Shown piece by piece: positions 4,732 to 20,360 of a stretch of 50,760 bases of DNA. The position numbers and the translations under genes are program-made. How positions within the stretch are numbered: the first letter of the stretch is position 1; every line of letters starts with the position of its first letter. The stretch comes from an uncultured bacterium (lineage in GTDB: Bacteria > CAYJRR01): positions 1-50,760 of the forward strand of contig CAYJRR010000013.1 of NCBI GenBank assembly GCA_964372275.1, written 5' to 3'. Under the pieces are notes generated by a model that saw nothing but the letters and a program-made list of their open reading frames with translations, was not told the origin of the DNA and searched no databases.

Positions 4732-7700
4732 TCATCGGTCGGCGAGGAGACGGCGCCCGATGACCGCGGCGGCGGCGAGGAGCAGGGCCAGCGGCAGGCC
4801 GCTGTCGCGCCGGACGCGAAGCGGCGTGACCTGGCAAGCGTGCGGTGCCGCCGGCTCCGGTTCGAGATCGATCGGGGCGGCGATCGGGTCGGCTCCGGGA
4901 CCGTCGTCGCGAAGGACCCAGTGGTAGTGGCCTTTCGGGAGCGGCATGTCCGACGCGAACGACGGCAGACCCCGCGCGGCGCGCGCGAGGTCGATCACCG
5001 GTCCGCCCGGGCCGCCGGCGCGGAGCCCGAGCGTGAGTCGCGCGCCGAGGCCGGCGGTCCCGTCCGGCGCGGGGGTTCCGTCGGGCGCCCTTCGCGTCGG
5101 GATCGCCGCCGGACGGAGGACGACCTCGACCGACGCGGGGGTCGCCACCTCGAACGCCCCCTCCGCGATCGGCGGGCTCGCCACCGCCTCAAACCACGAC
5201 GGAACGGGCTCCCCGGGCGCAGGCGGTCTCGAGACGATGCCGACCCACGGGATGTCGATGCGGAGTCTCGGTGCGAGACGCGCCACCGGCACGGACGGGG
5301 CGCGCGCCGCGTCGCGCGCGTCTCGGCGTCCGATCGGCGGCGTCTGGATCGACACCGGCTCGGTCGAGGGCTGCGGAGTCGAGGCGGGGGCCGCCGGAGC
5401 GGCGACCGAGAAGGAGACCACCTTCGGACTCGAGTCGAGCTCGCCGTCGGTGGCGTAGAAGGTGAGGCTGTCGGAGCCTTCGAAGCCGGCGTCGGGGGTG
5501 AAGGTCAGCGTCGCAGCCGTTCCGGCGATGGCGCCGTGGGCCGGGAGGCTCGCCAGGACGAAGGTCAGAACGTCGCCGTCGACGTCGGTCGCCGACAGCG
5601 TGAAGGTCGCCGGCGTGTCCGGTTCCGTGCCGACGCTCTGTGCGACGGCGACGGGGCGGTCGTTGACGGGGGCGATGGCGACGGTCACCTCGGCCTCGGC
5701 CGAGCTGTCGGTGCCGTCGTTCACGCGGAAGGTGAAGCGGTCGGCGCCGTTCGCGTCGGTGCTCGGCACGTAGGTGAGCGATGGGGCGGTGCCGGTGAGC
5801 GTTCCACGCGCGGGGGGGGTCACGATGGCGTAGGTCAGGGCGCTCCCCTCCACCGGATCGGATCCGGTCAGCGCCACCTGGACCGGAACGTCCTCGTCGG
5901 TCGTCACGGCGGATCCGGTCGCCGCCGGCGGGTCGTTCACCGACGCGACCGAAAGCGAGACGGTCGCCGCGCCGCTGTCGACGGCCATCCCCCCTGCGCT
6001 GCTGGCGGAGGCGACGTAGGTGAACAGGTCCGAACCGAAGAAGTTCGGCTCCGGGGTGTAGACCAGGTCGGGGGCCGTTCCGGAGACCGTCCCGTGGGAC
6101 GGGCCGGTCACGATGCGGAAGGCGAGCGGTTCCCCTTCGACGTCGGAGCCGGTGAGCGTGACCGCGGCCGATCCGTCCTCGTCGACGGCCACCGACTTGG
6201 CGTCGGCGGTCGGCGGGTCGTCGACGGCGTTCACCGTGATCGAGACGGTCGCGGCCTCCGAGTTGAGGGAGCCGTCGCGGACGCGGAAGGTGAATGCGTC
6301 CGGCCCGGCGTAGTTCCCGTCCGGAACGTACTTCACGTTCGGCACGATCCCGGTGAGCGTTCCGTGGACGGGGAGGGTGAGCACCGTGTAGGCGACGGCG
6401 CTCTGCTCGACCGGGTCGTGGCCTTCGAGGACGATCGTCAACGCGGTGTCCTCGGGCGTCGAGACCGATTGGCTCTCGGCGACAGGCCGGTCGTTGACCT
6501 CGGCGATCGTGAGGGTGACCGTCGCCGCGCCCGATTCGACCGTCCCGTCGGCCGCGGCGAAGGTAAAACTGTCCGGGCCGACGACGTTTGCGTTCGGGGT
6601 GTAGACGAAGTTGGGGGCGTTGCCCGAGAGCGACCCTTTCGACGGCGGGGTCACGAGCGAATAGGAGAGGGGATCGCCGTCGACGTCGGTTCCGGCCACC
6701 ACCACCGCCGTCGGCGTGTCCTCGGGAACGCCGACCGCCTGCGCCGTGGCGACCGGCGGGTCGTTGACGGGGGTGACGGTGATCGAAACGGTCACGATCT
6801 CCGAGAAGAGAAAAGGGTCACGGGCCCGGAAGGTGAACGAGTCGACGCCGTGGAAGTTCGGCTTCGGCGCGTAGCTCCTCGTCGCGCCGCTGCCGCTCAA
6901 CGTCCCGTGGGCGGGCGAGGTCACGACGAAGTACTGAAGCGCCGAGCCCTCCACGTCGGAGGCGGTGAGCGGGATCGACGCCACGATGTCCTCGGGCGTC
7001 TCCGCCGACGACCCCTCGGCCCTCGGGGCGTCGTTCACGGCCGCGATGGTGATCGCCACGGTGCGCTCCGCCGACGCGGCGTTCCCGTCGGAGACGACAT
7101 ACCGGAAGCTGTCGGCGCCGGTCTGGTTCGGGTTCGGGGTGTAGGTCCGCGCGGCCCCCTCGCCGCCGATCGTCCCTTTGGTCGGTTCGACCACGATCTC
7201 GAAGGTGAGCGAATCGCCGTCGGCATCGCTCCCCGGGAGCGTGAACCCCTTCGGCACGTCCTCCACCGCGGAGAGCGAGAGGTTCGCCGTCACCGGCGCG
7301 TCGTTCACCGGGTTCACCGTCAGCGTCACCACCGCCGGCGCGCTGAAGGTCGATCCCTCCTTGGCGCGGTATTCGAAGGAGTCCTCGCCGGCGTAGTTCA
7401 ACGACGGCTTGTAGGTCCGGATGGCGCCGGCTCCGACGATCGATCCGTGCGACGGTGCGCGCGTGATGTAGTAGTAGAGCGTTCCCCCTTCGGCCGCCGA
7501 TCCCGACAGGGTGATCGCGACCGGCGTGTCCTCGTCGGTCGTCGCCTCCTGCGAAACGGCCGTCGGCGGATCGACGACGCGGGAGATCGAGATCGTCACC
7601 GACTTGGCCGGGGAGTCGGCCGTTCCGTCGGACGCCTTGTAGGTGAAGCTGTCGGCGCCCCAGGCGTTGGCGTTCGGAACGTACAGGAATGCCGGCGATT

Positions 7701-10700
7701 CGCCCGACAGCGTCCCCTTGGTGGGGGGGGTGACGATCGAGAACTGCAGCGCGTCGCCATCGGCGTCGGTGCCGGTGAGCGTGATCGGTTTCGGCGCGTC
7801 CTCGACCGTGGCGAGGCTTCGCGGCGCGACGACCGGCGCGTCGTTCACGGGTCCGACCTCGACCGTGACCGTCGCCACCTCCGAATAGGCCCCGCCGTTG
7901 TCCCGCACCTTGAATCGGAAGCTGTCCGGCCCGTGGTAGTTCGGAAGACCCTTGTAGGTACGGCTGCTGCCTGTGCCGCTCAACGTTCCGTGCGACGGCG
8001 GCGTCACCAGGACGTAGACCGGCGTGGCTCCCTCCGGATCGCTGGCGGAGAGCAGGACCGGTTTCGGCGTGTCCTCGTCGGCGGAGATCGTCTGCGGGTG
8101 GGCGACCGGCGGGTCGTTCACCGCGAGAACGTTGATCGACACCGTCGCCACGTTCGACTCGAGCGCGCCGCTCGTCGCCTTGAAGGTGAAGCTGTCGGGG
8201 CCGGTGACGTTGGGGTTCGGCGTGTAGAGCAGGTCGGGGGCCGTTCCGGAGAGCACGCCCTTGGCCGGCGGACCGACGACGGTGTAGGCGACCTCCCCCT
8301 CCACGTCGGAGGCGACGAGGACGATCGCCTTCGGCGTGTCCTCCATTGTCGTCACCGACTGCGGATTGGCGACGAGCGTCGAGTCGGCGACCGGCAGAAC
8401 GGCGATCGTCACCGTCGCCGCGGCGGAGAAAACCTGGCCGTCCTTCGCCTTGAAGGTGAAGCTGTCCTGGCCGTGGAAGTTCGCCTCGGGCTTGTAGGTC
8501 TTGACCGTGCCGCTGCCGGTCAGCGTCCCGTGCGCGGGGAAGGAGGCGATGGCGAAGGTGACCGGCGATCCCTCCACGGGATCGGAGCCCGCCAACGTGA
8601 TCGCCACCGGCACGTCTTCGGAGGTCGTCACCGACTGCTCGTTCGCCACCGGGGGGTCGTTGACCGGCTGCACGGCGATCGTCACGGCCTTTGGCTCGGA
8701 GACGAGCTCCGCATCGCGCGCGACGAAGGTGAAGCCGTCGGGGCCGCTGACGTTGGCGTTCGGCGTGTAGGTCCAGCTCGCGCCGCTGCCGGCGAGCGTC
8801 CCCTTCGCCGGCGCGGTCACAACCTCGTAGGTGACCGGATCGCCGTCGGGGTCGGTCGCCAGCAAGGTGACGACCTTCGGGGTGTCCTCGGCGGTGGAGA
8901 AGGAACGCGGCGTCGCCACCGGAGGATCGTTCACCGGCGTCACCTGGATCGTCACCGTCGCGACCGGCGAGTTGACCGCGCCGTCGCGCACGCGGAAGCG
9001 GAAGGTGTCGGTGCCGAAGAAGTTGAGGCGCGGGACGTAGGTGCGCGTCGAACCAACGCCGGTCAGTGTCCCCTTCGTCGGATAGGTGACGATGGCGTAG
9101 GTCAGGACCGCCCCCTCGACGTCGGCGGCCTGGAGGGTGATCTCGACCGCCGTCTCCTCGGGGGTCGTCACCGTCTGGGCATGGGCGACGGGAGCGTCGT
9201 TCACCGGACTCACCTGGATCGACACGGTCGCCGGCTCGGAGTCGCCGGTGCCGTCGTGGGCAACGAAGGTGAAGCTGTCCGGACCGTGGAAGTTCGAGTT
9301 TGGGCGGTAGGTCAGCAGCGGGGGCGTTCCGACGAGCGTGCCGTGCGCCGGAGGGGTGGCGACCGAGTAGAGCAGCGGATCGGCATCGGGGTCGGTGGCG
9401 ACCAACACCACCGCTTTCGGCATGTCCTCGCTGGTGAGGATCGAACGCGCCAGCGCGGTCGGCACGCCGTCGTTCACCGGGGTGATTGTGATCTCGACCG
9501 TCGTCACGGCGGAGTAGAGCCCGCCGTTCTGCGGAAGCCCGTCCCGCACGCGGAAGGTGAACTTGTCGACCCCGTGGACGTTCGCCCGCGGCGAGTAGGT
9601 CAAGTTGGGGGCGGCGCCGGAGAGGATCCCCTTCGTCGGGAAGCTCGCCACATGGAAGGTGAGCGGGCTTCCTTCCACGGGATCGCTGCCCGCGAGCGTG
9701 ATCGGAATCGCCGTGTCCTCCGCGGTGACGACCGACTGCGCCTCGGCGGTCGGCGGGTCGTTCCGCGGCGCGACGGCGAAGGTGACCGTTCCGGCCGACG
9801 AGACCAACGCCCCATCGCCGGCGGTGAAGGTCATGACGTCGGTGCCGTTGAAGTTCGGGTTCGGCGTGTAGGTGAGGTTCGGCGCGTCGCCGGAGAGGGT
9901 TCCGTTGGAGGGGACGGCGAGAACGGTGAAGGCGAGAGGGGCCCCCTCCGGGTCGAGCGCGGCGAGGGTGAAGGCCTTCGGCGTGTCCTCGACCACGGGG
10001 ACCGCCTTGGTCGATGCGCGCGGAGCGTCGTCGACCCCGTTCACGGTGATCGTCACGGTGGCCACCGCCGAGGTCTGGCTCGCGTCCTTCGCCTTGTAGG
10101 TGAAGGTGTCGGTTCCGGCGAAGTCGGCGATCGGGGTGTAGGTGAGCTCCGGAGCCGTCCCCGACAGCGATCCCTTGCCCGGAGTGGCGACGATCTGGAA
10201 GGTGACCGGAGACCCTTCCACCGGGTCGGATCCGACGAGCGTGACCGCCACCGCCGTGTCTTCGTCGGTCGAGACCGAGAGCGATCCGGCGACCGGGGGA
10301 TCGTTCACCGCGTTCACGACGAGCGAGACGATCGCCGGCTCCGACGAGAGCAGACCGTCGTTGGCGAGGAACGAGAAGCTGTCGGTGCCGTTGAAGTGGG
10401 CGTTCGGGGTGTAGACGAGGTTCGGTTCCGCGCCGGAAAGCGTGCCGTTGGTCGGCTGGGTGAGCACGGTGTAGGTCAGCATTGTGCCGTCGGCGTCGGT
10501 GCCGGCGAGCGCGAACGACTTCGAGCCGTCCTCGCCGAGGGTGTAGCTCGCGGCGATCGCGACCGGCGCGTCGTTGACGGCCGTGATCCCGATCGAGACT
10601 GTCGCGGGGGTGGAGGCGAGAAGACCGTCGTGTGCGGCGAAGGTGAAGCTGTCGGCCCCGTCGACGTCCGGGTTCGGGGTGTAGACCAGGCTCCCGCCCG

Positions 10701-12213
10701 ATCCGCTCAGGACCCCCTTCGACGGCGGATCGACGATGGAGAAGGTGAGGGGGTCGCCGTCGATGTCGGCGCCACCGAGCGTGAGGGGGAGGGGCGTGTC
10801 TTCGTCGGTCGAGACCGACTGCGCGGCCGCGGTTGGCGGATCGTTCGTCCCCACGACCGTGATCGAGACCGTCGCCGCGGCCGATTCGAGCGATCCATCG
10901 CTCGCGCGGAACGAAAAGGCATCGCCGCCGACGTAGTCGGCCGCCGAGGTGTAGGTCAGGTTCGGCGGCGTGCCGGCGAGCGCGCCGTGGGCCGGTGGAG
11001 CGACGATCTGGAAGGTGAGGGGATCGCCGTCGACATCGCTCCCCGCGAGCGTGATCGCCGTCGACGCCTCTTCGGCGGCGGTGACCGATTGCGGCGTCGC
11101 CAGCGGCGCGTCGTTCACGGGCAGCAGGACGATCGAGAAGGTCGTCGGGACCGACCGGTCGGCGCCCCCGTTGCCGACGCCGCCGTCGTCCGTCGCCGCC
11201 ACGGTGACGACCGCCGTTCCCGTGGCGTCGACGGCGGGAGTGAAGGTCAACGTCCCGTCGCCGGCGATCGCCGGAAGGACGGAGAACCGCGCCGGCGCGC
11301 CGGTCGCGACCTCGAAGAGGACCGACTGCCCCGACTCGTCGGACGGACCGGGGGAGATCTGCGTCGCCCACCCGGCGAGGGTGGCCGGCCCCGACTCCTC
11401 GGCGACCGTCGGACCGGCCCCCGCCACGAAGCTCGGGGCGTCGTTGACCGGCACGATCGTCAGCGTGAACGACTGCGCGGCGCTCGTGTCGATCCCTCCG
11501 TCCGCGGTTCCGCCGGTGTCGACCGCCCGCACCGAGACGCTCGCCGTTCCGACCGCGTCGGCGGCCGGGGTGAAGGTCAGGCTTCCGCCGGGCCCGACCG
11601 CCGGCTGGGCGTCGAAGAGGCCGGGGGCGTCGTTGACGACGACGAAGGCCACCGATTGGCCCGATTCGTCCGCCGGTCCCGACGAGATCGACGTGGCCCA
11701 TCCGGCGACGAGCTGGGTGTCGGCGCCTTCGAGCACCGTCCGGCTCCCGCCGGCGACGAAGCTCGGGGCGTCGTTCACCGCCGTGACGGTGACCGTCACC
11801 GTCGCCGTCGAGCGGAGGTCGTCGCGGTCGTCGGACATCGTGTACTGGAAGGTCGCGACGCCGACGAAGTCGGCACGCGGCAGGAAGCGGATCGAGCCGG
11901 TCGAACCGTAGACGCATCCGGAAAGCGTCCCGTTCGACGGCACGGTGCAGGAGACGAGCCGCGCCGGCTGCGCGCCGTTGGGGACGACGGTGTCGTTGGC
12001 GAGCACGCCGATCTCGACCGACCGCTCTTCCGGCGTCGCCGTCGAGTCGTTGGCGGCCGACACCGACGACGCCCCCTGCCGCGCCAGAAAGACGCCGGTC
12101 CCGGGATCGCCGTCCCCCGTCGTGAACGCCGTCCGGCCCCCGACCTCGCCGCAACCCGCCAGGAGCGCGAGCGCGACGGCGGTCGGACCGCGAATGTCGA
12201 ATGTGAACCGCAT
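4732..12213 (-). CDS. Giant tandem-95 / Ig-like repeat surface protein (adhesin-like), 2493 aa, with MYXO-CTERM-like tail
   Basis: About 24 repeats delimited by (V/T)ND(A/P)P and containing YTPNxNFxGxDSFTF; N-terminal lipobox LAGC; C-terminal AC...LPLALLLAAAAVIGRR. Confidence 0.93.
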   Translation of the reverse strand: MRFTFDIRGPTAVALALLAGCGEVGGRTAFTTGDGDPGTGVFLARQGASSVSAANDSTATPEERSVEIGVLANDTVVPNGAQPARLVSCTVPSNGTLSGCVYGSTGSIRFLPRADFVGVATFQYTMSDDRDDLRSTATVTVTVTAVNDAPSFVAGGSRTVLEGADTQLVAGWATSISSGPADESGQSVAFVVVNDAPGLFDAQPAVGPGGSLTFTPAADAVGTASVSVRAVDTGGTADGGIDTSAAQSFTLTIVPVNDAPSFVAGAGPTVAEESGPATLAGWATQISPGPSDESGQSVLFEVATGAPARFSVLPAIAGDGTLTFTPAVDATGTAVVTVAATDDGGVGNGGADRSVPTTFSIVLLPVNDAPLATPQSVTAAEEASTAITLAGSDVDGDPLTFQIVAPPAHGALAGTPPNLTYTSAADYVGGDAFSFRASDGSLESAAATVSITVVGTNDPPTAAAQSVSTDEDTPLPLTLGGADIDGDPLTFSIVDPPSKGVLSGSGGSLVYTPNPDVDGADSFTFAAHDGLLASTPATVSIGITAVNDAPVAIAASYTLGEDGSKSFALAGTDADGTMLTYTVLTQPTNGTLSGAEPNLVYTPNAHFNGTDSFSFLANDGLLSSEPAIVSLVVNAVNDPPVAGSLSVSTDEDTAVAVTLVGSDPVEGSPVTFQIVATPGKGSLSGTAPELTYTPIADFAGTDTFTYKAKDASQTSAVATVTITVNGVDDAPRASTKAVPVVEDTPKAFTLAALDPEGAPLAFTVLAVPSNGTLSGDAPNLTYTPNPNFNGTDVMTFTAGDGALVSSAGTVTFAVAPRNDPPTAEAQSVVTAEDTAIPITLAGSDPVEGSPLTFHVASFPTKGILSGAAPNLTYSPRANVHGVDKFTFRVRDGLPQNGGLYSAVTTVEITITPVNDGVPTALARSILTSEDMPKAVVLVATDPDADPLLYSVATPPAHGTLVGTPPLLTYRPNSNFHGPDSFTFVAHDGTGDSEPATVSIQVSPVNDAPVAHAQTVTTPEETAVEITLQAADVEGAVLTYAIVTYPTKGTLTGVGSTRTYVPRLNFFGTDTFRFRVRDGAVNSPVATVTIQVTPVNDPPVATPRSFSTAEDTPKVVTLLATDPDGDPVTYEVVTAPAKGTLAGSGASWTYTPNANVSGPDGFTFVARDAELVSEPKAVTIAVQPVNDPPVANEQSVTTSEDVPVAITLAGSDPVEGSPVTFAIASFPAHGTLTGSGTVKTYKPEANFHGQDSFTFKAKDGQVFSAAATVTIAVLPVADSTLVANPQSVTTMEDTPKAIVLVASDVEGEVAYTVVGPPAKGVLSGTAPDLLYTPNPNVTGPDSFTFKATSGALESNVATVSINVLAVNDPPVAHPQTISADEDTPKPVLLSASDPEGATPVYVLVTPPSHGTLSGTGSSRTYKGLPNYHGPDSFRFKVRDNGGAYSEVATVTVEVGPVNDAPVVAPRSLATVEDAPKPITLTGTDADGDALQFSIVTPPTKGTLSGESPAFLYVPNANAWGADSFTYKASDGTADSPAKSVTISISRVVDPPTAVSQEATTDEDTPVAITLSGSAAEGGTLYYYITRAPSHGSIVGAGAIRTYKPSLNYAGEDSFEYRAKEGSTFSAPAVVTLTVNPVNDAPVTANLSLSAVEDVPKGFTLPGSDADGDSLTFEIVVEPTKGTIGGEGAARTYTPNPNQTGADSFRYVVSDGNAASAERTVAITIAAVNDAPRAEGSSAETPEDIVASIPLTASDVEGSALQYFVVTSPAHGTLSGSGATRSYAPKPNFHGVDSFTFRARDPFLFSEIVTVSITVTPVNDPPVATAQAVGVPEDTPTAVVVAGTDVDGDPLSYSLVTPPSKGSLSGNAPNFVYTPNANVVGPDSFTFAAADGTVESGAATVTLTIAEVNDRPVAESQSVSTPEDTALTIVLEGHDPVEQSAVAYTVLTLPVHGTLTGIVPNVKYVPDGNYAGPDAFTFRVRDGSLNSEAATVSITVNAVDDPPTADAKSVAVDEDGSAAVTLTGSDVEGEPLAFRIVTGPSHGTVSGTAPDLVYTPEPNFFGSDLFTYVASASSAGGMAVDSGAATVSLSVASVNDPPAATGSAVTTDEDVPVQVALTGSDPVEGSALTYAIVTPPARGTLTGTAPSLTYVPSTDANGADRFTFRVNDGTDSSAEAEVTVAIAPVNDRPVAVAQSVGTEPDTPATFTLSATDVDGDVLTFVLASLPAHGAIAGTAATLTFTPDAGFEGSDSLTFYATDGELDSSPKVVSFSVAAPAAPASTPQPSTEPVSIQTPPIGRRDARDAARAPSVPVARLAPRLRIDIPWVGIVSRPPAPGEPVPSWFEAVASPPIAEGAFEVATPASVEVVLRPAAIPTRRAPDGTPAPDGTAGLGARLTLGLRAGGPGGPVIDLARAARGLPSFASDMPLPKGHYHWVLRDDGPGADPIAAPIDLEPEPAAPHACQVTPLRVRRDSGLPLALLLAAAAVIGRRLLADR

Positions 12214-12445
12214 CGGTCCCGAGAAAGACCTCCGGCCTGAACCGATCTGGAGAGTTCATTGGACGCGCCAGGCGGCGAGGCGCGGCAGGCGGCCGGCAAC
12301 CGATGGAGATTGCGAGAGTTCGCGATCGCCGCGGGAGCGCGACGACGGCTGAAACGTCAATCCGCTGTCGGCACGGCGATCCGAAACGTCGACGAATTGA
12401 CGCCGGAAGCGGTTGCCGGTTGCCGAGGAGCTCGAGAAAAGGGCG

Positions 12446-12489
12446 AAAAAAAGAAGAGGCCCGGGGCGGCATCGCCGGCCCGGGCCTCT
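12446..12489 (-). terminator. Intrinsic terminator of the minus-strand non-coding transcript
   Basis: Perfect 11-bp stem AGAGGCCCGGG (12455-12465) / CCCGGGCCTCT (12479-12489). On the minus strand it is followed by TC and T7 (A7 at 12446-12452). Confidence 0.9.
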
Positions 12490-13435
12490 CGAAGCTACCG
12501 AAGTAATGACAACGTGGATGGATTCGCCGGTCCCGTTTTCCCCTTCAGAGGCGTCGGCTGCACGACAGTGGAATCGAATGCTGCAGGCAATCGACCCGCG
12601 CTTCCACGAGATTGGGACTCCCGTTCAGAGGTTCCGCGTCGAATCGATAGGGCGTTCGCGTGGAACCGCTTCCGCCCATCCCCGTGCGACCTTCGCCGTT
12701 TCCGGCCGGGCCCTTCGGGTCTTCTCTCTCCGACGTCACCGGCAGGTGCGACCCCGCCGGTACTCCTCTCCTCGGGTTGCCCTTCTCCACGAAGCGGCAT
12801 CCACCGTTCAACCGCCCCCGCCTGCGCATGGCGAGAGCACCTCTCCTGGGGTTCGTGCCCCTACAGCGCTCGACAGAAGCGGGTGCCCGCTTTCCCGGAG
12901 ATTCCATCCTCCGGCACGATCCGCCCTCAGGGTTTCTCACCCTCTCGACGGCTTCCGTCACCCACGACCCTACAGGGCTTGTTTCATCCCCGCTGCGCTC
13001 TTGGGGTTCCTCCGGACCTCCGCCACTCGCAACGGCCTTTCGACCGAAGCAGGGCGACGGCGCCCGGGTTCCCTCTTCAAGGCTTTCTCCCCCCCCGCGA
13101 CGAGCCCGTGTTGGCGGGCTCTCCTCTCTCTCACCTCGCCGACGGCAAGCACCCGGTTAAAGGAACCAATGCCGGCGATGCGACCCAGAGTCTCGATCAC
13201 AGAAGGGTCGGTGTATCCCATGGGAGCTACCCGCGGGCACCGGCCTTCTTGAGGTTCTCGGCCGACCATCGCACTCGTGGATTCGAAGCGTTTCTACTCG
13301 GCCCCTGGGTTGCCCCTTCGCCTTCCGGGAACGTCGCCGCCCCCCTCCAGCCGCTTCGGAACCTTTCGCGCCCCTACCGGAGCTCCACGAGTCCAACGTC
13401 TCTGCCTCGGACCCGACAACCAACCGCGTTGTCAA
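12446..13435 (-). ncRNA. Putative large (~1 kb) highly structured non-coding RNA of unrecognised class
   Basis: Bounded by a sigma54 promoter and an intrinsic terminator. Ends are complementary (13420-13434 with 12507-12521). More than 10 helices are visible by eye, with GNRA and UUCG loops and purine-rich loops on the minus strand. Overlapping ORFs look like shadow ORFs. Confidence 0.75.
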
Positions 13436-13445
13436 TCTCCCTATA

Positions 13446-13462
13446 AGCAGCCGACATGCCAG
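13446..13462 (-). promoter_or_regulatory. sigma54 (-24/-12) promoter of the putative ncRNA
   Basis: Minus strand CTGGCATGTCGGCTGCT = GG-N10-GC (GG 13460-13459, GC 13448-13447). The predicted TSS at ~13435 coincides with the 5' arm of the closing helix. Confidence 0.75.
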
Positions 13463-13488
13463 CCTTGCGGGTTGCCGCGCAGACCTTT

Positions 13489-13614
13489 CCATCCACATCG
13501 GAAGATCTTGCGGCGACAGGCCTCTGCGGTCCTGTCCACAATCGCTCCCCACTTCATCCCCCGTTCGATGAACAAGGGGGGCGACTAGAAGTGCGACGGC
13601 GCACCTTGTCCACA
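13489..13614. promoter_or_regulatory. Three DnaA-box-like 9-mers upstream of the ncRNA promoter
   Basis: CCATCCACA 13489-13497, CTGTCCACA 13532-13540 and TTGTCCACA 13606-13614, all in the same orientation (consensus TTWTNCACA). Confidence 0.45.
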
Positions 13615-13676
13615 GATCGCATGCCCGCTCCAGGAAAACAGGCGGTTTTCGTCGTCCCTGCCGATCCACCCACCGT

Positions 13677-15065
13677 CTACTTTGTTGGCGGTCCCGCGCC
13701 ACGCTGTCGCGAGGCGTCCAGCGCACGATCGATGCAGTCGGCGACCGAGACGCCGAGTCGGTAGTTTCCCAACAGCCGGATCGCCGGATGCTCCGCTTCG
13801 ATCGCCTCGGCCGCCGCCAGGAATCGGTCGTGCCCCACCTCGAGCTGCGGGATGGCGGGACGCCACACGGTTACGGCCTGCCGTATGGCCGGTCCTTCGA
13901 TCCGAAGGATCGAGGTCAGTTCGCGATGTGCCAGCGCCGCGAGTTCCGTTTCCGACAGAAGGACGGCGTCGGGGTCGAGCCGCCCACCGTAGAGGGCGGT
14001 GAGCGTCACCTCGTCGGGCCCCGCGCGCCCGTTCCAGGTATCGCTCACGAACAGGCAACCCAGGATCCGGGGTGACACCGATTCCGGCCGCAGGTCCGAC
14101 GGCGGCGATCCGGCCGCGCGCGCGGTCAGGAAGCCGAATCCGCGCGGGATCGTGGCGAACTGCTCCACACCGTAGACCGAGAAGACGCTCGCCACCGACG
14201 CGTAGGGGAGCTCACGGAAGAGCTCCGCCCGGCGGTCGAGATCGCCGAGCACCGCCGGGAGGGCGTATCCCGGAAGCGCGACCACCACCTGGGAGGCGTC
14301 GAAGGAAAACGGCGCGTCGTCGCAGCTCCCCTCCACCCGAACGCCGTCCCCCACGCGACGGATCCGTTCCACCCGATGCCGCCGGCGGAGCGCATCGCCA
14401 AGCCCCGCGGCCAGGTGCTCCGCCGCGCGTTGCATTCCGCCGCGGAAGTTCACCGACACCGCCGTGGGCCCGGTTCGGCGCCGAGCGAGCGCCCCCCGAA
14501 TCAGGCTTCCGTGGTCCCGTTCCAGCTCCGCCAGCAGCGGAAAGGCGTGGCGGAGGCTCAATCGTTCCGGATCGCCGGCGAACACCCCGGAGACGAAGGG
14601 GGCGACCGCGTTCGTGAGGAAGCTCTCCCCCAGCCTCCGTCGCGTGAAGGCGGCCACCGATTCGTCGGCGTCGTTCGACCCACGTCGCCACGGCTCCGCG
14701 AGCAGACCGAGCTTGTCGCGCGGCGAAAAGAGCGGGCTGGCCGCGAAGGCGATCGGGTTCGTCGGGATCGGAACCAGCCGCCCCGCGCGCAGGACGTATC
14801 GCCGCCGCGCCTCGGGGGAGGGATCGATCCGCAACGCCCCGAGGCCGGATTCGTCGAGAAACCGCCGCACCGAGTCGTGGCGCAGCAGTGTGGACGACGC
14901 CCCCGCGTCGTAGATTGCGCCGCCCACGTCGCGCGTGTGCAGGCATCCCCCCAGCCGGTCGGACGCCTCGAGGAGCACGACGCGCTCGCCGGATCGCCGG
15001 GCCTTCCAGGCGGCGGTCAGCCCGCTGATCCCGCCACCGACCACCACCCGGTCGAGCGGGGCCAT
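13677..15065 (-). CDS. hemG: Protoporphyrinogen oxidase (HemG/HemY family)
   Basis: MAPLDRVVVGGGISGLTAAW FAD-binding motif, LEASDRLGG, GVFAGDPERLS, GFGFL, LGNYRLGVSVADCI; TGATG overlap with the hemN stop. Confidence 0.93.
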   Translation of the reverse strand: MAPLDRVVVGGGISGLTAAWKARRSGERVVLLEASDRLGGCLHTRDVGGAIYDAGASSTLLRHDSVRRFLDESGLGALRIDPSPEARRRYVLRAGRLVPIPTNPIAFAASPLFSPRDKLGLLAEPWRRGSNDADESVAAFTRRRLGESFLTNAVAPFVSGVFAGDPERLSLRHAFPLLAELERDHGSLIRGALARRRTGPTAVSVNFRGGMQRAAEHLAAGLGDALRRRHRVERIRRVGDGVRVEGSCDDAPFSFDASQVVVALPGYALPAVLGDLDRRAELFRELPYASVASVFSVYGVEQFATIPRGFGFLTARAAGSPPSDLRPESVSPRILGCLFVSDTWNGRAGPDEVTLTALYGGRLDPDAVLLSETELAALAHRELTSILRIEGPAIRQAVTVWRPAIPQLEVGHDRFLAAAEAIEAEHPAIRLLGNYRLGVSVADCIDRALDASRQRGAGPPTK

Positions 15066-16456
15066 CAGACCGTTCGGGAGAAGAGACGCGGGCCCTTCTT
15101 CAGATACGCGTCGAACGGCATGCAGAGGTTCCGCGCCAGCATTCGTCCCCTGGCCGAGACCCGGATCCTCTCCGGCTCCACGACCACCAGTCCGTCCTCC
15201 TGCATCGCTCGCAGCGCCTCGAGGGCGTCGGCGAAGGTCCGGTCGAAGTCGATGCGGAACCGCTCTTCGAACCAGCGCTTCTCCAGAACGAACTGCGACG
15301 AGAGCTGCAGGATCACCTCCCGCCGCAACAGGTCGTCGTCGTCGAGCAGGCAGCCGCGCTCGGTGGCCAGCCGCCCGCTCCCCGCCGCCGCCTCGTATTC
15401 GCCCAGCCCCTTCGCGTTCTGCGCGTAGCAGCGACCGACCTGGCTGATGGCGCTCATCCCGAACGCGATCAGGTCGAGCCCCTTCCAGGTGGTATAGCCC
15501 ATGAAGTTCCGGTGCAGCGTCCCGGCGCGCTGCGCCACCGCCAGCTCGTCGTCGGCGAGCGCGAAGTGGTCGAAGCCGATGAAGACGTATCCCGCGGCGG
15601 TGAACCGTTCGATCGCCATCCCCAGGATGGCGAGTCGCTCGTCCGGACCGGGGAGGGCGGCCTCCGGGAGCAGCCGCTGGTGTTTCAGCAGATCGGGGAG
15701 GTAGGCGAAGTTGTAGACCGCGATCCGGTCGGGCCGAAGCCCGATCACCGTCTCCACCGTTCTTGCGAAACGGCCGACCGTCTGGTGCGGCAGTCCGTAG
15801 ATCAGGTCGACGTTGACCGACGCGAAGCCCAAGGCCCTCGCGTCCTCGATCGTCTGCCGCGTGAGCGACTCCGGCTGGATCCGGTTGATCGCGCGCTGCA
15901 CCTCCTCGTCGAAGTCCTGGACGCCGAGGCTCAAGCGATTCCAGCCGTGGCTCGCGAGAACCTGCAGATGTTCGCGGCGCGTCTCGTTGGGATGGACCTC
16001 CACCCCCCGCTCCGCGTCGTCGGCGAAGGTGAAACGCGCTTTCAGGGCGCGGATCAGCCGGTCGAGGGCGTCCGGCGGGAGGAAGGTCGGGGTCCCGCCG
16101 CCGAAATGGACCTGCCGAACGACCCGCCGCCGGTCGATCCGCGACGCCACCGCGTCCAGTTCCCGCTCGAGACGGTCGAGGTACGGGTAGCTCCGCGCGT
16201 GATCGCGGCGAACCACCAGGTTGCAGCCGCAGAAGTAGCAGAGCTGTTCGCAGAACGGCAGGTGGACGTAGAGCGACAGGTCGGCCGGCGGTCCGCCGAA
16301 CGGATCGGCGTCGTTGGAGCGGCGCAACGCTTCGGCGTAGGCCTCGGGTCCGGTGGCCGGCGTGAAGTTGGGGGCGGTGGGGTAGGAGGTGTAGCGGGGC
16401 CCCGGGACGTCGTACTTCCGGATGAGGCCCAAGTCGAAGGAGAGACGCTGGTCCAC
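15065..16456 (-). CDS. hemN: Oxygen-independent coproporphyrinogen III oxidase (radical SAM)
   Basis: KYDVPGPRYTSYPTA, LYVHLPFCEQLCYFCGC (CxxxCxxC), HFGGGTPT, LHRNFMGYT. GTG start at 16456 is inferred. Confidence 0.95.
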   Translation of the reverse strand: MDQRLSFDLGLIRKYDVPGPRYTSYPTAPNFTPATGPEAYAEALRRSNDADPFGGPPADLSLYVHLPFCEQLCYFCGCNLVVRRDHARSYPYLDRLERELDAVASRIDRRRVVRQVHFGGGTPTFLPPDALDRLIRALKARFTFADDAERGVEVHPNETRREHLQVLASHGWNRLSLGVQDFDEEVQRAINRIQPESLTRQTIEDARALGFASVNVDLIYGLPHQTVGRFARTVETVIGLRPDRIAVYNFAYLPDLLKHQRLLPEAALPGPDERLAILGMAIERFTAAGYVFIGFDHFALADDELAVAQRAGTLHRNFMGYTTWKGLDLIAFGMSAISQVGRCYAQNAKGLGEYEAAAGSGRLATERGCLLDDDDLLRREVILQLSSQFVLEKRWFEERFRIDFDRTFADALEALRAMQEDGLVVVEPERIRVSARGRMLARNLCMPFDAYLKKGPRLFSRTV

Positions 16457-16555
16457 GCGTGACTCGAAGGGTAGCCGTACGGGGAACCGTTTCCAAACGG
16501 CGTTCAAGCGTGGTATTTGGCCCCTTTCGCGGGCAGCTACGAGGAGGAACGCGCG

Positions 16556-17329
16556 ATGCGACGGATCGGGACGGGCCGGGCGGCGTGGGCGGTCGTGGCG
16601 GTGTCGGCGGCGCTTTTCGGCGGCGGCTGCCAGGGCGGCGACGACGAGGAGGCGGGGGGCGGCGGCGTGACGCTCGAGACCTACGGCGGGATCGTCGTGC
16701 TCGCCGCCGGGCCGGACGGGGCGACCGCCTACGGAGCCTTCTTCTCCCGCTACGAGCCGTTCGAGCCGGTCTTGATCCCCGGGGCGACCGACACCTGCGT
16801 CCAGGGAACGCTCGAGGGGGGGGACGACGGCGACGACGCCGACTTCACCTACCTCGACGTCGGGAGCGAGATGACGGCCGCCTCCGGGACGGTCGACGTC
16901 GACGCGGCCCGGTCGAACGACTTCGGGCTTCTCTACATCGGCACCTCGGACGAGACGTTCCCCTGGGACGCCGACTACGTCGTCTCGATCTCGGGATCGG
17001 CCGCCGCCGACCGCGGTCCGATCGGGACGGTCCGCGTCCCGGCGCCGGCCGAGCTCGAAGGCGCGCCGGAGGTCGTCCCCGGCGAGCCGCTCGCGCTCGC
17101 CTTCACGCGGCACGTCGGCGCCGATTGGATCGACGTCGTGGTGACGAGCGACGACGAGGAGACGATCTGGTCCTGCCGGTCGAAGGACGACGGCTCGTTC
17201 ACCCTTCCGGCCGACGTGACCGAATCGGTCGGCGCCGGCGCCTCGATCGAGCTGATCCCGAACGCGCACGCCCGGGGCGAGGTGGCCGGCCGCGACGTCT
17301 ATCTCTTCGCCCGTCCGTACGAAGGATAG
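16556..17329 (+). CDS. Hypothetical acidic lipoprotein
   Basis: GAGGAGG RBS, ATG at 16556, signal peptide ending FGGGC, GC3-biased codons. Confidence 0.8.
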   Translation: MRRIGTGRAAWAVVAVSAALFGGGCQGGDDEEAGGGGVTLETYGGIVVLAAGPDGATAYGAFFSRYEPFEPVLIPGATDTCVQGTLEGGDDGDDADFTYLDVGSEMTAASGTVDVDAARSNDFGLLYIGTSDETFPWDADYVVSISGSAAADRGPIGTVRVPAPAELEGAPEVVPGEPLALAFTRHVGADWIDVVVTSDDEETIWSCRSKDDGSFTLPADVTESVGAGASIELIPNAHARGEVAGRDVYLFARPYEG

Positions 17330-17371
17330 TGGTCCGCGCTTCGCGCTCCGTGGGGGGCTCCCCCTGTCCCC

Positions 17372-18424
17372 CTAGCCGAGCGCGCGGAGCGCCTTCCAGG
17401 AGCGGCCGGGGTCGGGGGCGCGGCGGGCGAGATCGGCCAGCGTCCGCACCCACCGGGGATGGTCGTTCAGCGACGGCACCAGCGTGAGCGCTTCGCCGCC
17501 GGCGCGGACGAACGACGCCGCGGCGGTGAGCCCGATCTCCTCCACCGTCTCCAGGCAGTCGGCGACGAAGGCCGGGCAGAAGACGACGACCCGCGCGCAG
17601 CCCCGTTCCGGGAGCGTCGGCAGGACGTGGTCGGTGTAGGGGCGGATCCAGCCGTCGCGATCCAGGCGCGATTGGAAGGCGACCGAGTACCGCCCGGCGT
17701 CGAGACCGAGCCGCTCCGCGATCCCCCGCGCGGTGGCGTGGCACTGCGCGCGGTAGCAGTCGCGGTTCAGATCGGTGAGGCGATCGCAGCAGTCGGCCGC
17801 GACGAGGCAGTGCCGTCCCGTGCGGTCGCCGCGCCGGATGTGGCGCTCCGGCAGTCCATGGAAGCTGAACAGCACGTGGTCGGGGCGCGCGCGTGCGAGC
17901 ACCGGCGCCCCGACTTCGGCGAACGCCTCCAGGAAGCCGGGCTCGTCGAAGAAGGGGCCGATCGCCGCCAACGGCAGCCGGAGGTCGAGGCGGGTCGCTT
18001 CGCGCTCCACCGCCTCGAGCGTCGACCCGGTCGAGGCGACGGCGAACTGCGGATAGAGCGGGACGGCGACGATCCGATCGCAGCCGGCCGCCCGGAGGCG
18101 CGTCAGCCCCTCCGCGATCGGCGGGTTGCCGTAGCGCATCGCCAACTCCACCGCCCACTCGCGGCCCAGCTCGACACGGACGGCATCGCGGAGGGCGAGC
18201 CCGTGGCGCAGGAGCGGCGAGCCACCGTCCCAGATCTTGCGGTAGGCGGCGGCGGAGCGACGCGAGCGGAAGGGGAGGATCACCAGGTGGAGGAGCAACG
18301 CCCGCGCCGCCGGGTGCATGTCGAGGACCCGCGGGTCGGAGAGGAACTCCCGCAGGTAGCGCCGCACCGCGCGCGGCGTCGGACTGTCGGGGGTCCCGAG
18401 GTTGACCAGGAGCAGCCCGTTCAT
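17372..18424 (-). CDS. hemH: Ferrochelatase
   Basis: MNGLLLVNLGTPDSP, FLSDPRV, MRYGNP, PLYPQ, FSFHGLPERH, FQSR, FVADCLET. Confidence 0.96.
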   Translation of the reverse strand: MNGLLLVNLGTPDSPTPRAVRRYLREFLSDPRVLDMHPAARALLLHLVILPFRSRRSAAAYRKIWDGGSPLLRHGLALRDAVRVELGREWAVELAMRYGNPPIAEGLTRLRAAGCDRIVAVPLYPQFAVASTGSTLEAVEREATRLDLRLPLAAIGPFFDEPGFLEAFAEVGAPVLARARPDHVLFSFHGLPERHIRRGDRTGRHCLVAADCCDRLTDLNRDCYRAQCHATARGIAERLGLDAGRYSVAFQSRLDRDGWIRPYTDHVLPTLPERGCARVVVFCPAFVADCLETVEEIGLTAAASFVRAGGEALTLVPSLNDHPRWVRTLADLARRAPDPGRSWKALRALG

Positions 18425-20277: not shown

Positions 20278-20360
20278 CGCCGCGGATGCTACCAGATCGA
20301 AAACGGCAGGAAGGGGGGCGGGCGGCGAGCCCGCGGATGGAGTATCGTGGAGCGTTCGCG

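Follow-up and report, generated by a model that had tools for sequence, protein, structure and literature searches.

A stand-alone gene for a ~990-nt structured non-coding RNA from a large family of bacterial RNAs absent from Rfam

Positions 12446-13435 of the minus strand, in the 50,760-nucleotide stretch of DNA analysed here (the window), are a stand-alone gene for a highly structured non-coding RNA of about 990 nt, counted from the predicted +1 (~13435) through the last U of the terminator run (12446). Both the gene and its strand were observed, and as far as sequence comparison goes, the RNA is one member of a large and widespread family reaching about 1.8 kb. The explanation that we favour, and hold to be reasonably probable, is a gene bounded by a sigma54-type promoter and a terminator, present as two paralogues, that belongs to a large-RNA family absent from Rfam and makes an architectural RNA acting in trans. 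The interpretation of the initial annotation, which had proposed a giant structured RNA with its own promoter, closing helix and terminator, is supported overall, and the refuting conditions listed with it, as far as sequence data reach, were all decided in its favour; its scope was underestimated, as the RNA is part of a large family and no lone oddity. In the following, the window gene is called copy A and its paralogue copy B.

12446..13435, minus strand: RNA gene (similarity limits with the paralogue; strand-specific conserved fold; non-coding)
13446..13462, minus strand: sigma54-type -24/-12 promoter, CTGGCAUGUCGGCUGCU (read from the letters; GG-GC spacing of 12 nt)
12446..12490, minus strand: intrinsic terminator, a G+C-rich hairpin and then UUCUUUUUUU (MFE fold; kept in copy B)

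The -24/-12 element proposed earlier, CTGGCATGTCGGCTGCT, was found at 13462-13446 of the minus strand, with GG at 13460-13459 and GC at 13448-13447, and from this spacing +1 is placed at about 13435; the exact transcript ends in the window organism are inferred. The element follows the pattern TGGCAU-N5-CUGCU (13461-13446), and paralogue conservation begins 11-13 nt downstream of the GC. Genome-wide, the 17-mer CTGGCAYGTCGGCTGCT occurs only upstream of the two RNA copies (a looser motif gives 50 genome matches), and the sequences flanking it on both sides are unlike between copies A and B. RpoN is encoded in the same genome (Sigma54_DBD, 216.5 bits), as are 33 Sigma54_activat matches, none of which adjoins either RNA copy, and no sigma70-like site was found in 12150-13750. 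Membership among sigma54-dependent genes was assessed by GG/GC spacing upstream of the start and by the presence of RpoN and enhancer-binding proteins, and both were met; dependence on sigma54 in vivo is an inference from these sequence features. In the case of the other family members, the strict motif (TGGCA, 5-8 nt, TGC) was found upstream of the core in 0 of the 22 contigs examined. A looser GG-N10-GC scan of the upstream flanks, possible for 12 contigs with usable anchors (22 tried), gave scattered matches without a TGGCA/TTGC context at a steady distance, and contig L065 has an apparent sigma70-type promoter, as judged by eye. Sigma54 control is thus not a family trait. As a side observation, the word TGTGGAYRG occurs four times upstream of copy A (looser GTGGAY forms included) and once upstream of copy B, which is too weak for calling an activator site.

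At the other end, the hairpin and U run suggested as a terminator (12490-12446) appear in the MFE fold, and two Rfam models, both below threshold, also align them as a terminator. In copy B the terminator carries three compensated pairs and was recovered as inverted repeat I5; a simple terminator scanner did not report the window terminator. With its own promoter and terminator, the RNA gene is a stand-alone unit, as had been proposed; it is flanked by a heme-biosynthesis operon and an adhesin gene, its neighbours being hemH/hemN/hemY-type genes and adhesins. ARAGORN detected neither tRNA nor tmRNA in 12000-14000.

The paralogue lies in the same genome (G000:C80:16602-17614) and is 75% identical over about 1,013 nt, the similarity beginning at the promoter and stopping at the terminator. 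The consensus fold of the two copies reached -395.1 kcal/mol, where 30 column shuffles gave -283.8±10.1 and the reverse complement gave -288.6, and the two-copy alignment contained 26 doubly compensated pairs versus 15.5±3.5 expected from shuffles. Single-sequence MFE z-scores were -3.6 for the minus strand and -2.6 for the plus strand. The fold signal is consequently beyond chance, and the signal from the paralogue is far stronger than the single-sequence z-score. Compensatory pairs, restriction to one strand and the lack of a conserved reading frame, which together define membership among structured non-coding RNAs, were all met.

To describe the conserved structure, a full-length alignment of 16 sequences was used as the basis for calling helices retained. 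It contains 55 helices with 270 pairs, and covarying pairs were observed in most helices. The main elements are listed here.

13420..13434, minus strand: closing helix, 5' strand (pairs with 12507-12521)
12507..12521, minus strand: closing helix, 3' strand (pairs with 13420-13434)
13270..13395, minus strand: 5' domain closed by UGACUCGUGGA/UCCACGAGUCG (11 bp, 91% paired, 7 covarying pairs)
13032..13047, minus strand: GNRA hairpin UCGGUC-GAAA-GGCCGU (88% paired, 4 covarying pairs)
12696..12705, minus strand: GNRA hairpin CCG-GAAA-CGG (loop GAAA in 15 of 16 sequences)
12814..12838, minus strand: hairpin GCUCUCGCC/GGCGGGGGC with a self-complementary GCGC in the loop (9 bp, 98% paired, 8 covarying pairs)
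12540..12552, minus strand: 3' junction strand CCUCU-GAA-GGGG (pairs with CCCC-AGG-AGAGGU at 12839-12851; 98% paired)
12495..12506, minus strand: hairpin UUAC-UUCG-GUAG (read from the letters)

The closing helix was found as the initial annotation had drawn it, with UGACAACGCGGUUGG (13434-13420) opposite CCAUCCACGUUGUCA (12521-12507), and a C·A mismatch in copy A becomes a C-G pair in copy B. Complementary 5' and 3' ends were found again in other subfamilies: a perfect helix of at least 8 bp between the first and last 40 nt was present in 14 of 75 contigs, compared to 10 of 773 control comparisons. The energy of the terminal duplex was uninformative (-27.5 kcal/mol at the ends versus -26.5 for internal pieces). 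The hairpin UUAC-UUCG-GUAG is also present as described (12506-12495); it is not conserved in copy B and therefore probably not essential.

Regarding the nested helices, those written as ACUCGUGGA/UCCACGAGU, CGGUG/CACCG, CCCG/CGGG, CCGGAGG/UCUCCGG, GCUCUCGCC/GGCGGGGGC and ACCGGCGGG/CCUGCCGGU were kept in the 16-sequence alignment. Most of the kept helices covary; CGGUG/CACCG has one covarying pair, and the invariant GGGU...ACCC and GGG-GCAA-CCC stems have none. Three of the proposed pairings did not stand as drawn: AGAAGG/CCUUCU was replaced by CCCUUCUGUGAU/GUCGCGGGGGGG with 8 covarying pairs, AAGCGG/CCGCUU by a long-range helix around GUGGGUG/CACCCGC with 6 covarying pairs, and CGAAGCG/CGCUUCG was shifted in register to GGGGCG/CGCUUC. 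The four capped hairpins GGG-GCAA-CCC, GGUC-GAAA-GGCC, CCG-GAAA-CGG and GGGU-GAGAA-ACCC, all of them suggested earlier, were retained in the same alignment. In the 5' domain, two GNRA-capped hairpins have loops at 13334-13337 and 13310-13313, reading GUGA/GCGA/GAGA and GAAA/GUAA/GCAA in 16 of 16 sequences. The loop of the 13032-13047 hairpin is GAAA in 14 of 16, GCAA in one and UAAA in one, and the loop of the 12814-12838 hairpin contains a 4-nt palindrome in 14 of 16 sequences (copy B has UUCG). The 3' junction pairing recurs in other subfamilies with changed letters, as judged by eye at contig ends (CUCC..GAGAGU/ACUCU-GAA-GGAG and CCUC..AAGG/CCUU-CGAA-GAGG).

Across the family, conservation is centered on a core, listed here with two of its hairpins.

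12808..13024, minus strand: family-wide conserved core forming a multi-helix junction (limits from an nhmmer envelope, core profile of the family; 86-sequence alignment A3)
12921..12951, minus strand: near-invariant hairpin CCGUC-GAG-AGGGU-GAGAA-ACCCU-GAG-GGCGG with a 3x3 purine internal loop (search pattern match at 12925-12946)
12972..12993, minus strand: hairpin with the conserved loop AUGAAACAAG, containing a second UGNRA pentad (helix 4, covarying stem)

In the core alignment of 86 sequences, 89.4% of the cells were paired versus 77.8% after shuffling, and 417 cells were changed on both sides versus 140; none of 500 shuffles reached any of five measures, and slid registers gave 31-54% paired. 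The outer stem of the 12921-12951 hairpin covaries (pair 86-117: CG 54, GC 21). Its inner part supplied the search pattern, so that the invariance seen there is to some extent imposed. Its loop can be read as the 7-nt UGAGAAA, which begins with a UGNRA pentad, and each of the five pairs in the 12972-12993 stem has changes on both sides (among them CG 48/GC 26 and GC 38/CG 32). The UGNRA pentads of these two core loops resemble T-loops, according to what we take to be the T-loop consensus. A reading of the 3x3 purine loops as kink-turns was dropped by eye, with no GA directly beside the C-stem and a varying middle position. What all members have in common is this multi-helix core of about 200 nt with its near-invariant hairpin, a 3' junction of the CCUCU-GAA-GGGG type and a helix joining the 5' and 3' ends.

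The 22-nt core motif occurs in at least 120 metagenome contigs. Among the matches listed, the two-copy profile recognised 109 of 120, with near full-length alignments for about 15. The 5' ends fall into four distance classes from the core in 95 of the 109 listed homologous contigs, and the 3' ends into two classes in 87 of the 109. This clustering of contig ends implies discrete RNAs of about 1.0-1.15 kb and about 1.82 kb, and one contig of 2,006 nt contains a 1.82-kb unit between unrelated flanks; for the family as a whole, sizes are put at about 0.94-1.15 kb and about 1.82 kb. The family is present in RNA libraries: four runs from three studies, labelled aquifer, soil and ice, each contained 22-288 contigs with at least 80% likeness on 12512-13407, and contig depth peaked at 12896-12959 in all four. 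Most of these contigs differ from the window, since in runs X5, X7 and X9 only 5 of 77 were at least 95% alike and none reached 99%. The RNA-library contigs carry no information on strand, ends or level, and none was shown to come from the window organism. The near absence of cover outside 12512-13407 is no evidence either, as the contigs come from relatives whose flanks would differ anyway.

Viral contigs, plasmids and phage records gave 0 matches to the family. A search for the core motif in 400 other genomes yielded no confirmed member; two matches with 2 mismatches were not members, and a reversed control pattern gave a similar number of matches. An 18-base motif, taken from the longest block identical between the copies, was found in nine stretches of the genome contigs of a collection of 185,579 species, and as none of the nine matched the RNA profile, all are taken as chance. 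The searched genome collection has no second member of the phylum to which the window genome belongs. A neighbouring protein gave an ambiguous host taxonomy, as clusters from Verrucomicrobiota, Myxococcota, Gemmatimonadota and Acidobacteriota each scored 0.99. Around the RNA, the 10 ORFs in the flanks of contigs L100, L112 and L120 had no Pfam match, and no conserved partner gene was found beside the RNA in the readable contigs.

To our knowledge, few RNAs are at once large, conserved and structured, and new biochemistry or architecture has come from every example so far (ribosome, RNase P, group I/II introns, OLE, ROOL, GOLLD). The present family is diverse enough for strong covariation analysis and combines occurrence in RNA libraries of several habitats with a genomic home in which promoter, terminator and gene context are readable; abundant RNAs can escape notice where genome collections under-sample a lineage. 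A broader reading, for which we see about equal reason to believe and to doubt, is that the window holds the first genomic anchor of an undescribed giant class of bacterial non-coding RNA (0.94-1.82 kb), the largest known besides rRNAs and introns, with deep coverage in RNA libraries from soil, groundwater and ice and unconfirmed in 400 other sampled genomes. In such a class, an invariant core would serve catalysis or docking, possibly through a pair of T-loops gripping tRNA-like elbows, and some members would be RNA circles of about 950 nt. In size, the family exceeds the ornate RNA classes with which it is compared below; GOLLD is described as the largest of the three (PMC12286853).

For the favoured explanation, an architectural RNA acting in trans, the tertiary fold, the partner, the action in trans and the function, be it scaffold, cage or ribozyme, are inferred. 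A compact tertiary structure is suggested by the four conserved GNRA loops, the two T-loop-like pentads and the nested long-range helices. Folded in this manner, the RNA may act as an architectural scaffold, either in a ribonucleoprotein or as a homo-oligomer. A conserved partner, either a protein or a second RNA (the tRNA elbow, for instance), would dock on the invariant core, and/or the RNA may assemble with itself, as do the ornate RNAs OLE, ROOL and GOLLD. In the window organism, an enhancer-binding protein would gate production of the RNA through sigma54.

Alternatively, the RNA could be a self-processing or self-ligating ribozyme, or could be circularised after transcription, with the closing helix joining the ends for cleavage and ligation and the circle as the active or stable form. 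We consider this unlikely, yet it is the alternative that survives best. Contigs L019 (974-nt unit) and L097 (937-nt unit) have exact terminal repeats of 123 nt and were therefore assembled as circles or tandem units, with the closing helix capped by an 8-nt and a 4-nt loop; in one subfamily, many contigs end precisely with the final base of this helix, and the size and richness in GNRA loops recall large ribozymes. However, these are only 2 of 120 among the matches listed, tandem genes or a cycle in the assembly graph look alike, and two further contigs are clear assembly chimeras. Moreover, a primary promoter sits at the first base of the window RNA, whose terminator follows 17 nt (12490-12506) after the helix, and known models of self-cleaving RNAs, group I and group II introns and RNase P gave no match.

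Somewhat less likely still is a decoy capturing either a protein, as CsrB/RsmZ and 6S RNA do, or parts of the ribosome, in which repeated GGAG/GAGG strands by GGG...CCC hairpins would titrate a regulator on induction. The RNA strand is indeed purine-rich, the module CCCC-ANG-AGAGG paired with CCUCU-GAA-GGGG recurs several times when the sequence is read, and summed contig depth in the RNA libraries is very high, although such depth reflects expression poorly. In known sponges, simple hairpins form short arrays with only loose conservation. In the window RNA, in contrast, the purine strands are mostly paired in covarying nested long-range helices, and the near-invariant core is single and not repeated.

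Compared to the architectural reading, it also appears improbable that the RNA is a divergent form of a known class missed by Rfam (group II intron, RNase P, OLE, ROOL, GOLLD) or a published family outside Rfam. Covariance models can miss very distant members, and the literature search, which found no published description of the family, was by keyword only. Nevertheless, Rfam 15 (4,227 models, among them rRNA, RNase P, tmRNA, 6S, group I/II introns, OLE, ROOL, GOLLD, raiA and HEARO) gave 0 gathering-threshold matches in the whole window and 0 in 20 family contigs, the outcome that had been named as supporting novelty, and no keyword result fitted. In E-value mode only junk was left: five sub-threshold matches in 12000-13900, the two best covering the terminator hairpin only, and two junk matches in 10 diverse members (E >= 0.18). 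At ~1-1.8 kb and absent from Rfam, the family is thus likely to be a new class among the very large RNAs of bacteria.

The exclusion of rRNA, tmRNA, RNase P and group II introns, first argued from missing hallmark motifs, holds: no model matched the window, and the genome has its own canonical RNaseP_bact_a at G000:C163 (280.7 bits) and tmRNA at G000:C115 (123.5 bits). Membership in these two classes as the genome's only candidate was thus not met. Group II introns lie inside a host gene, begin with GUGYG and have a domain V hairpin with a catalytic AGC and a 2-nt bulge. Membership was not met here either, as the 5' end reads UUGACAACG without GUGYG and no intron model matched; the AGCCGUC hairpin has a symmetric 3x3 loop instead of a 2-nt bulge, and no domain-V-like hairpin was read in the sequence. 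The window RNA begins at a promoter and ends at a terminator and is consequently not embedded in a host gene. It resembles RNase P and group II introns in its paired 5' and 3' ends, nested multi-helix junctions and GNRA tetraloops, and its UGNRA loop pentads resemble the T-loops by which RNase P docks the tRNA elbow; it differs in that no model matched the window or the tested members and no intron boundary motifs were read.

OLE RNA is a ribonucleoprotein scaffold of about 600 nt in Bacillota, stand-alone, abundant and highly conserved, with protein partners and in an operon with the partner gene oapA. The window RNA is likewise a stand-alone, large and conserved RNA for which a working model with a protein partner is favoured, whereas no OLE model matched, no conserved neighbour gene is found, and host lineage, G+C content and the sigma54 promoter are different. 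Qrr, GlmY and Pxr are sigma54-dependent regulatory RNAs of 100-200 nt acting by base-pairing or as decoys. Like these, it is a non-coding RNA directly behind a -24/-12 promoter, to be made only with an active enhancer-binding protein; unlike them, it is about 1 kb long with a conserved tertiary-type architecture, and its relatives' readable flanks lack a sigma54 promoter.

In the case of GOLLD and ROOL, which form RNA-only nanocages, homology to the models was not met, nor was a phage or prophage site near tRNA genes. GOLLD is described as the largest of three classes, with many members above 800 nt, and GOLLD and ROOL sit in phages and prophages near tRNA islands and form cages held by self-interacting kissing loops (PMC12286853). 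The window family ranges from about 940 to about 1,820 nt, and the window RNA is chromosomal, between heme and adhesin genes, with no viral or phage match; the only hint of a homo-oligomeric assembly is the self-complementary GCGC loop (14 of 16 sequences). Otherwise the systems are alike in being very large and intricately folded, with many conserved tertiary-type loops, and in having become visible first in environmental sequence; also, the conserved and variable regions of GOLLD correspond roughly to the conserved core and variable arms of the present family.

The genomic context raises the question of a leader or regulator acting in cis on the adjoining giant adhesin gene. Both copies adjoin giant Big_9/cadherin-repeat genes, of which the genome has about 5 strong loci, and copy A lies 230 nt upstream of its adhesin gene on the same strand. 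This reading is nonetheless very improbable, as a strong terminator ends copy A, copy B is placed downstream of its adhesin gene, with an acyl-CoA dehydrogenase gene converging on it, and the ends of family contigs cluster at the RNA's own boundaries.

Finally, the reading of plus-strand ORF 12259-13446 (395 aa) as a protein-coding gene is refuted as far as sequence can tell and can practically be set aside: 15 of 16 homologues do have long open frames on the strand opposite the RNA, but stop codons are rare there because the antisense strand is pyrimidine-rich. The earlier statement that the region has no credible CDS agrees with blank Pfam results for the plus-strand ORFs 12259-13446 and 12413-13252 and the minus-strand ORF 13157-13726. 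Homologues conserving a frame rather than base pairs would have refuted the RNA reading; they keep the base pairs and have no conserved frame. Between copies A and B, 15 of 19 indels have lengths not divisible by three and shift the frame, and the 233 substitutions are distributed as 83/73/77 across the three codon positions, without codon periodicity.

The analysis shows a stand-alone, strand-specific, conserved and very large structured RNA gene at 12446-13435 on the minus strand (copy A), with relatives in RNA libraries. The gene lies in a gap (12214-13676) that is flanked by minus-strand genes on both sides and is by composition purine-rich on the minus strand. The initial annotation had described a sigma54-type element, a closing helix, a UUCG hairpin and a terminator here, and all of them were found where it had placed them, as read in the sequence:

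13462-13446, minus strand: -24/-12 element CTGGCAUGUCGGCUGCU
13434-13420 with 12521-12507, minus strand: closing helix of copy A
12506-12495, minus strand: UUCG hairpin of copy A
12490-12446, minus strand: terminator of copy A

From the position of the -24/-12 element, a +1 near 13435 is predicted. Within the gap, no sigma70-like promoter and no tRNA or tmRNA genes were found.

That the RNA gene is real is shown by a second copy (copy B) on contig C80 of the same genome (G000:C80:16602-17614), with 75% identity across ~1,013 nt. Neither nhmmer nor blastn detected further copies in this genome. Both copies carry the 17-mer CTGGCAYGTCGGCTGCT at the promoter and differ upstream of -24 and between -12 and +1. 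Their similarity starts at the promoter, picks up again where the RNA is predicted to begin and stops at the terminator. The two-copy consensus fold reached -395.1 kcal/mol, compared to -283.8±10.1 for 30 column shuffles and -288.6 for the reverse complement, and contained 26 doubly compensated pairs versus 15.5±3.5. Thus, the structure is conserved and specific to the minus strand.

In the collection searched, the source genome alone represents its phylum, and the full RNA as query gave no match in 60 other genomes. A 22-nt search pattern was derived from a conserved block of the RNA, within the ~200-nt multi-helix core. In 400 other genomes (273 families) this pattern gave two matches with 2 mismatches, neither fitting the family profile, and a reversed control pattern gave a comparable count. 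The pattern was absent from 2.9 million viral contigs, and plasmid and phage records gave no match to the RNA. In metagenome contigs it occurred in at least 120 stretches; among the matches listed, the two-copy profile matched 109 of 120. About 15 of these 109 contigs align nearly full length, with 61-75% identity to the window, and the rest over a ~170-nt core.

Contig ends were not randomly placed. Among the matches listed, the 5' ends lay at core distances of 470-560 (9), 565-620 (30), 630-710 (35) and 850-935 (21), with 14 of 109 outside these classes, and the 3' ends at core distances of 400-535 (69) and 895-960 (18), with 22 outside. These classes fit assembled transcripts of discrete size, ~1.0-1.15 kb and ~1.82 kb. 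The 1.82-kb unit is flanked by unrelated sequence in one 2,006-nt contig; between two 1.8-kb members 31 of 33 indels were not multiples of three, and no conserved ORF was found in the 1.8-kb members. Terminal bases are complementary within subfamilies, e.g. 5'-GUGAGGGCGACG...CGUCGCCCUCAC-3', and a perfect helix of at least 8 bp between the terminal 40-mers was present in 14 of 75 contigs versus 10 of 773 control comparisons. Contig ends need care in this family, since contigs L045 (944-1007) and L080 (882-1226, both in RNA orientation) are assembly chimeras, in which part of the RNA's own interior, or of a variant's, has been joined on past the 3' end.

Near-identical words were detected in public runs, including 3 DNA runs and 6 RNA libraries, in small shares. 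Assembled contigs of four RNA libraries, which come from three studies and bear the labels aquifer, soil and ice, were placed on the window at 80% likeness; 28, 22, 27 and 288 contigs matched 12512-13407. The deepest cover was 12896-12959 in all four, and many contigs match only ~12911-12954, diverging beyond. These matches are assembled contigs mostly from relatives, and speak for presence only, not for strand, ends or level.

Covariation was counted for the predicted eight-helix junction on a core alignment of 86 sequences (84 metagenome sequences less than 90% alike, from the 120 core segments listed, plus the two genomic copies). Paired cells amounted to 89.4% versus 77.8±0.4% in shuffled alignments, and cells changed on both sides to 417 versus 140±15. 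Sliding the partners by 1-3 columns lowered pairing to 31-54%. Clean single-pair switches were AU 36/GC 35, CG 48/GC 26, GC 38/CG 32 and GC 33/CG 28. The covariation among homologues that the initial annotation had proposed as a check is strong in this core, as 0 of 500 shuffles reached any of five measures. The invariance of the central hairpin's inner stem is uninformative, because the search pattern demanded those bases.

At full length, an alignment of 16 sequences gave 55 consensus helices with 270 pairs, mostly 90-100% paired, and covarying pairs are present in most helices. Most helices first drawn from the single sequence were kept in this consensus, and two gave way to long-range alternatives. 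The RNA forms several domains within one closed fold. GNRA loops are kept in 14-16 of the 16 sequences at four hairpins. A UGNRA pentad, the consensus signature of T-loops, begins two core loops, AUGAAACAAG and UGAGAAA, which is no more than a lead towards T-loops here. A recurring motif consists of a helix, a 3x3 purine loop and a second helix (CCCC-ANG-AGAGG with CCUCU-GAA-GGGG); by eye, all subfamilies retain its 3'-proximal copy in altered sequence. The loop of one hairpin contains GCGC, which is self-complementary, in 14 of 16 sequences.

In the source organism, the RNA would be switched on through sigma54, as inferred from its promoter. The genome encodes RpoN, and its 4.6 Mb contain 33 sigma54 activator-domain matches; the exact promoter 17-mer occurs only at the two RNA copies and a looser pattern 50 times. 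No sigma54 activator gene lies beside either copy, and no sigma54 motif was found in the available flanks of other family members. The word TGTGGAYRG recurs upstream of the copy A promoter (13490-13620, minus strand) and has a single occurrence upstream of copy B; a role as activator site is conceivable, though too weak to call. In contig L065, from another subfamily, a putative sigma70-type promoter was read by eye at 1-50 in RNA orientation (TTGCGC, 16 nt, CATACT), whose end lies ~9 nt short of the start of the closing helix. This implies that promoter type differs within the family, with the transcript still starting at the helix.

Regarding function, which is itself inferred, we favor, at slightly under an even chance, a compact architectural RNA that would act in trans. 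A conserved partner would dock on the invariant core, and/or the RNA would self-assemble like OLE, ROOL and GOLLD. A self-processing or circularising RNA is unlikely, yet the best placed of the other readings. Two of the 120 contigs among the matches listed, L019 (974-nt unit) and L097 (937-nt unit), carry exact 123-nt terminal direct repeats, and were thus assembled as circles or tandem units, with their closing-helix strands joined by 8 nt and 4 nt, respectively. RNA circles, tandem genes and cycles in the assembly could each account for this, and the two plain chimeras among other contigs call for caution. Slightly less probable still is that the RNA serves as a protein decoy.

We consider it improbable that this is a known family that was missed, or one already published. 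In line with the initial suggestion of an undescribed RNA, no Rfam 15 match at gathering thresholds was obtained for the window and 20 family contigs, E-value mode returning only junk. Separate genes for RNase P RNA and tmRNA are present in the genome. A keyword literature search at abstract level found no description of the family.

A cis-regulator of the adhesin gene appears very improbable. The neighbors of copy A are:

4732-12213, minus strand: Big_9/cadherin-repeat protein of 2,493 aa, starting at 12213, downstream neighbor of the RNA
13677-16496, minus strand: ORF with protoporphyrinogen-oxidase-type domain, gene end at 13677, upstream neighbor of the RNA
15065-17269, minus strand: ORF with HemN-like radical-SAM domain, heme-biosynthesis row
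17372-20389, minus strand: ORF with ferrochelatase domain, heme-biosynthesis row

Giant Big_9/cadherin genes adjoin both RNA copies, with copy A on the upstream side of its neighbor and copy B on the downstream side, and the genome holds ~5 strong loci of this kind. This adjacency is suggestive, from one genome only. Finally, a coding gene is virtually ruled out: the 233 substitutions between copies A and B fall 83/73/77 on the codon positions, 15 of the 19 indels would shift the frame, no reading frame is under conservation between them, and Pfam gave no match to the open frames of the gap, as expected from the earlier reading of no credible CDS.

The giant surface proteins carry 22-27 Big_9/cadherin repeats (window 4732-12213, minus strand, 3-2435 and 2666-4657, and G000:C80), and the N-terminus of the 2,493-aa protein reads by eye as a lipoprotein-like signal with LLAGC at its end. 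On the other side, the heme row (13677-20389, minus strand) comprises ferrochelatase, HemN-like radical-SAM and amine-oxidase genes, the protoporphyrinogen-oxidase-type gene being last; true starts lie further downstream, as the mechanical ORFs far exceed the domains and mutually overlap. Directly downstream of the copy B terminator, and without counterpart at copy A, lies a ~120-nt imperfect palindrome (11643-11761 of L003, a stretch of G000:C80). Its first arm is a polypyrimidine stretch (CCTCC/TTCTCC) and its second the complementary polypurine tract of GAGGAGG repeats; the arms are at most 92% complementary, and the element may form triplex or hairpin DNA.
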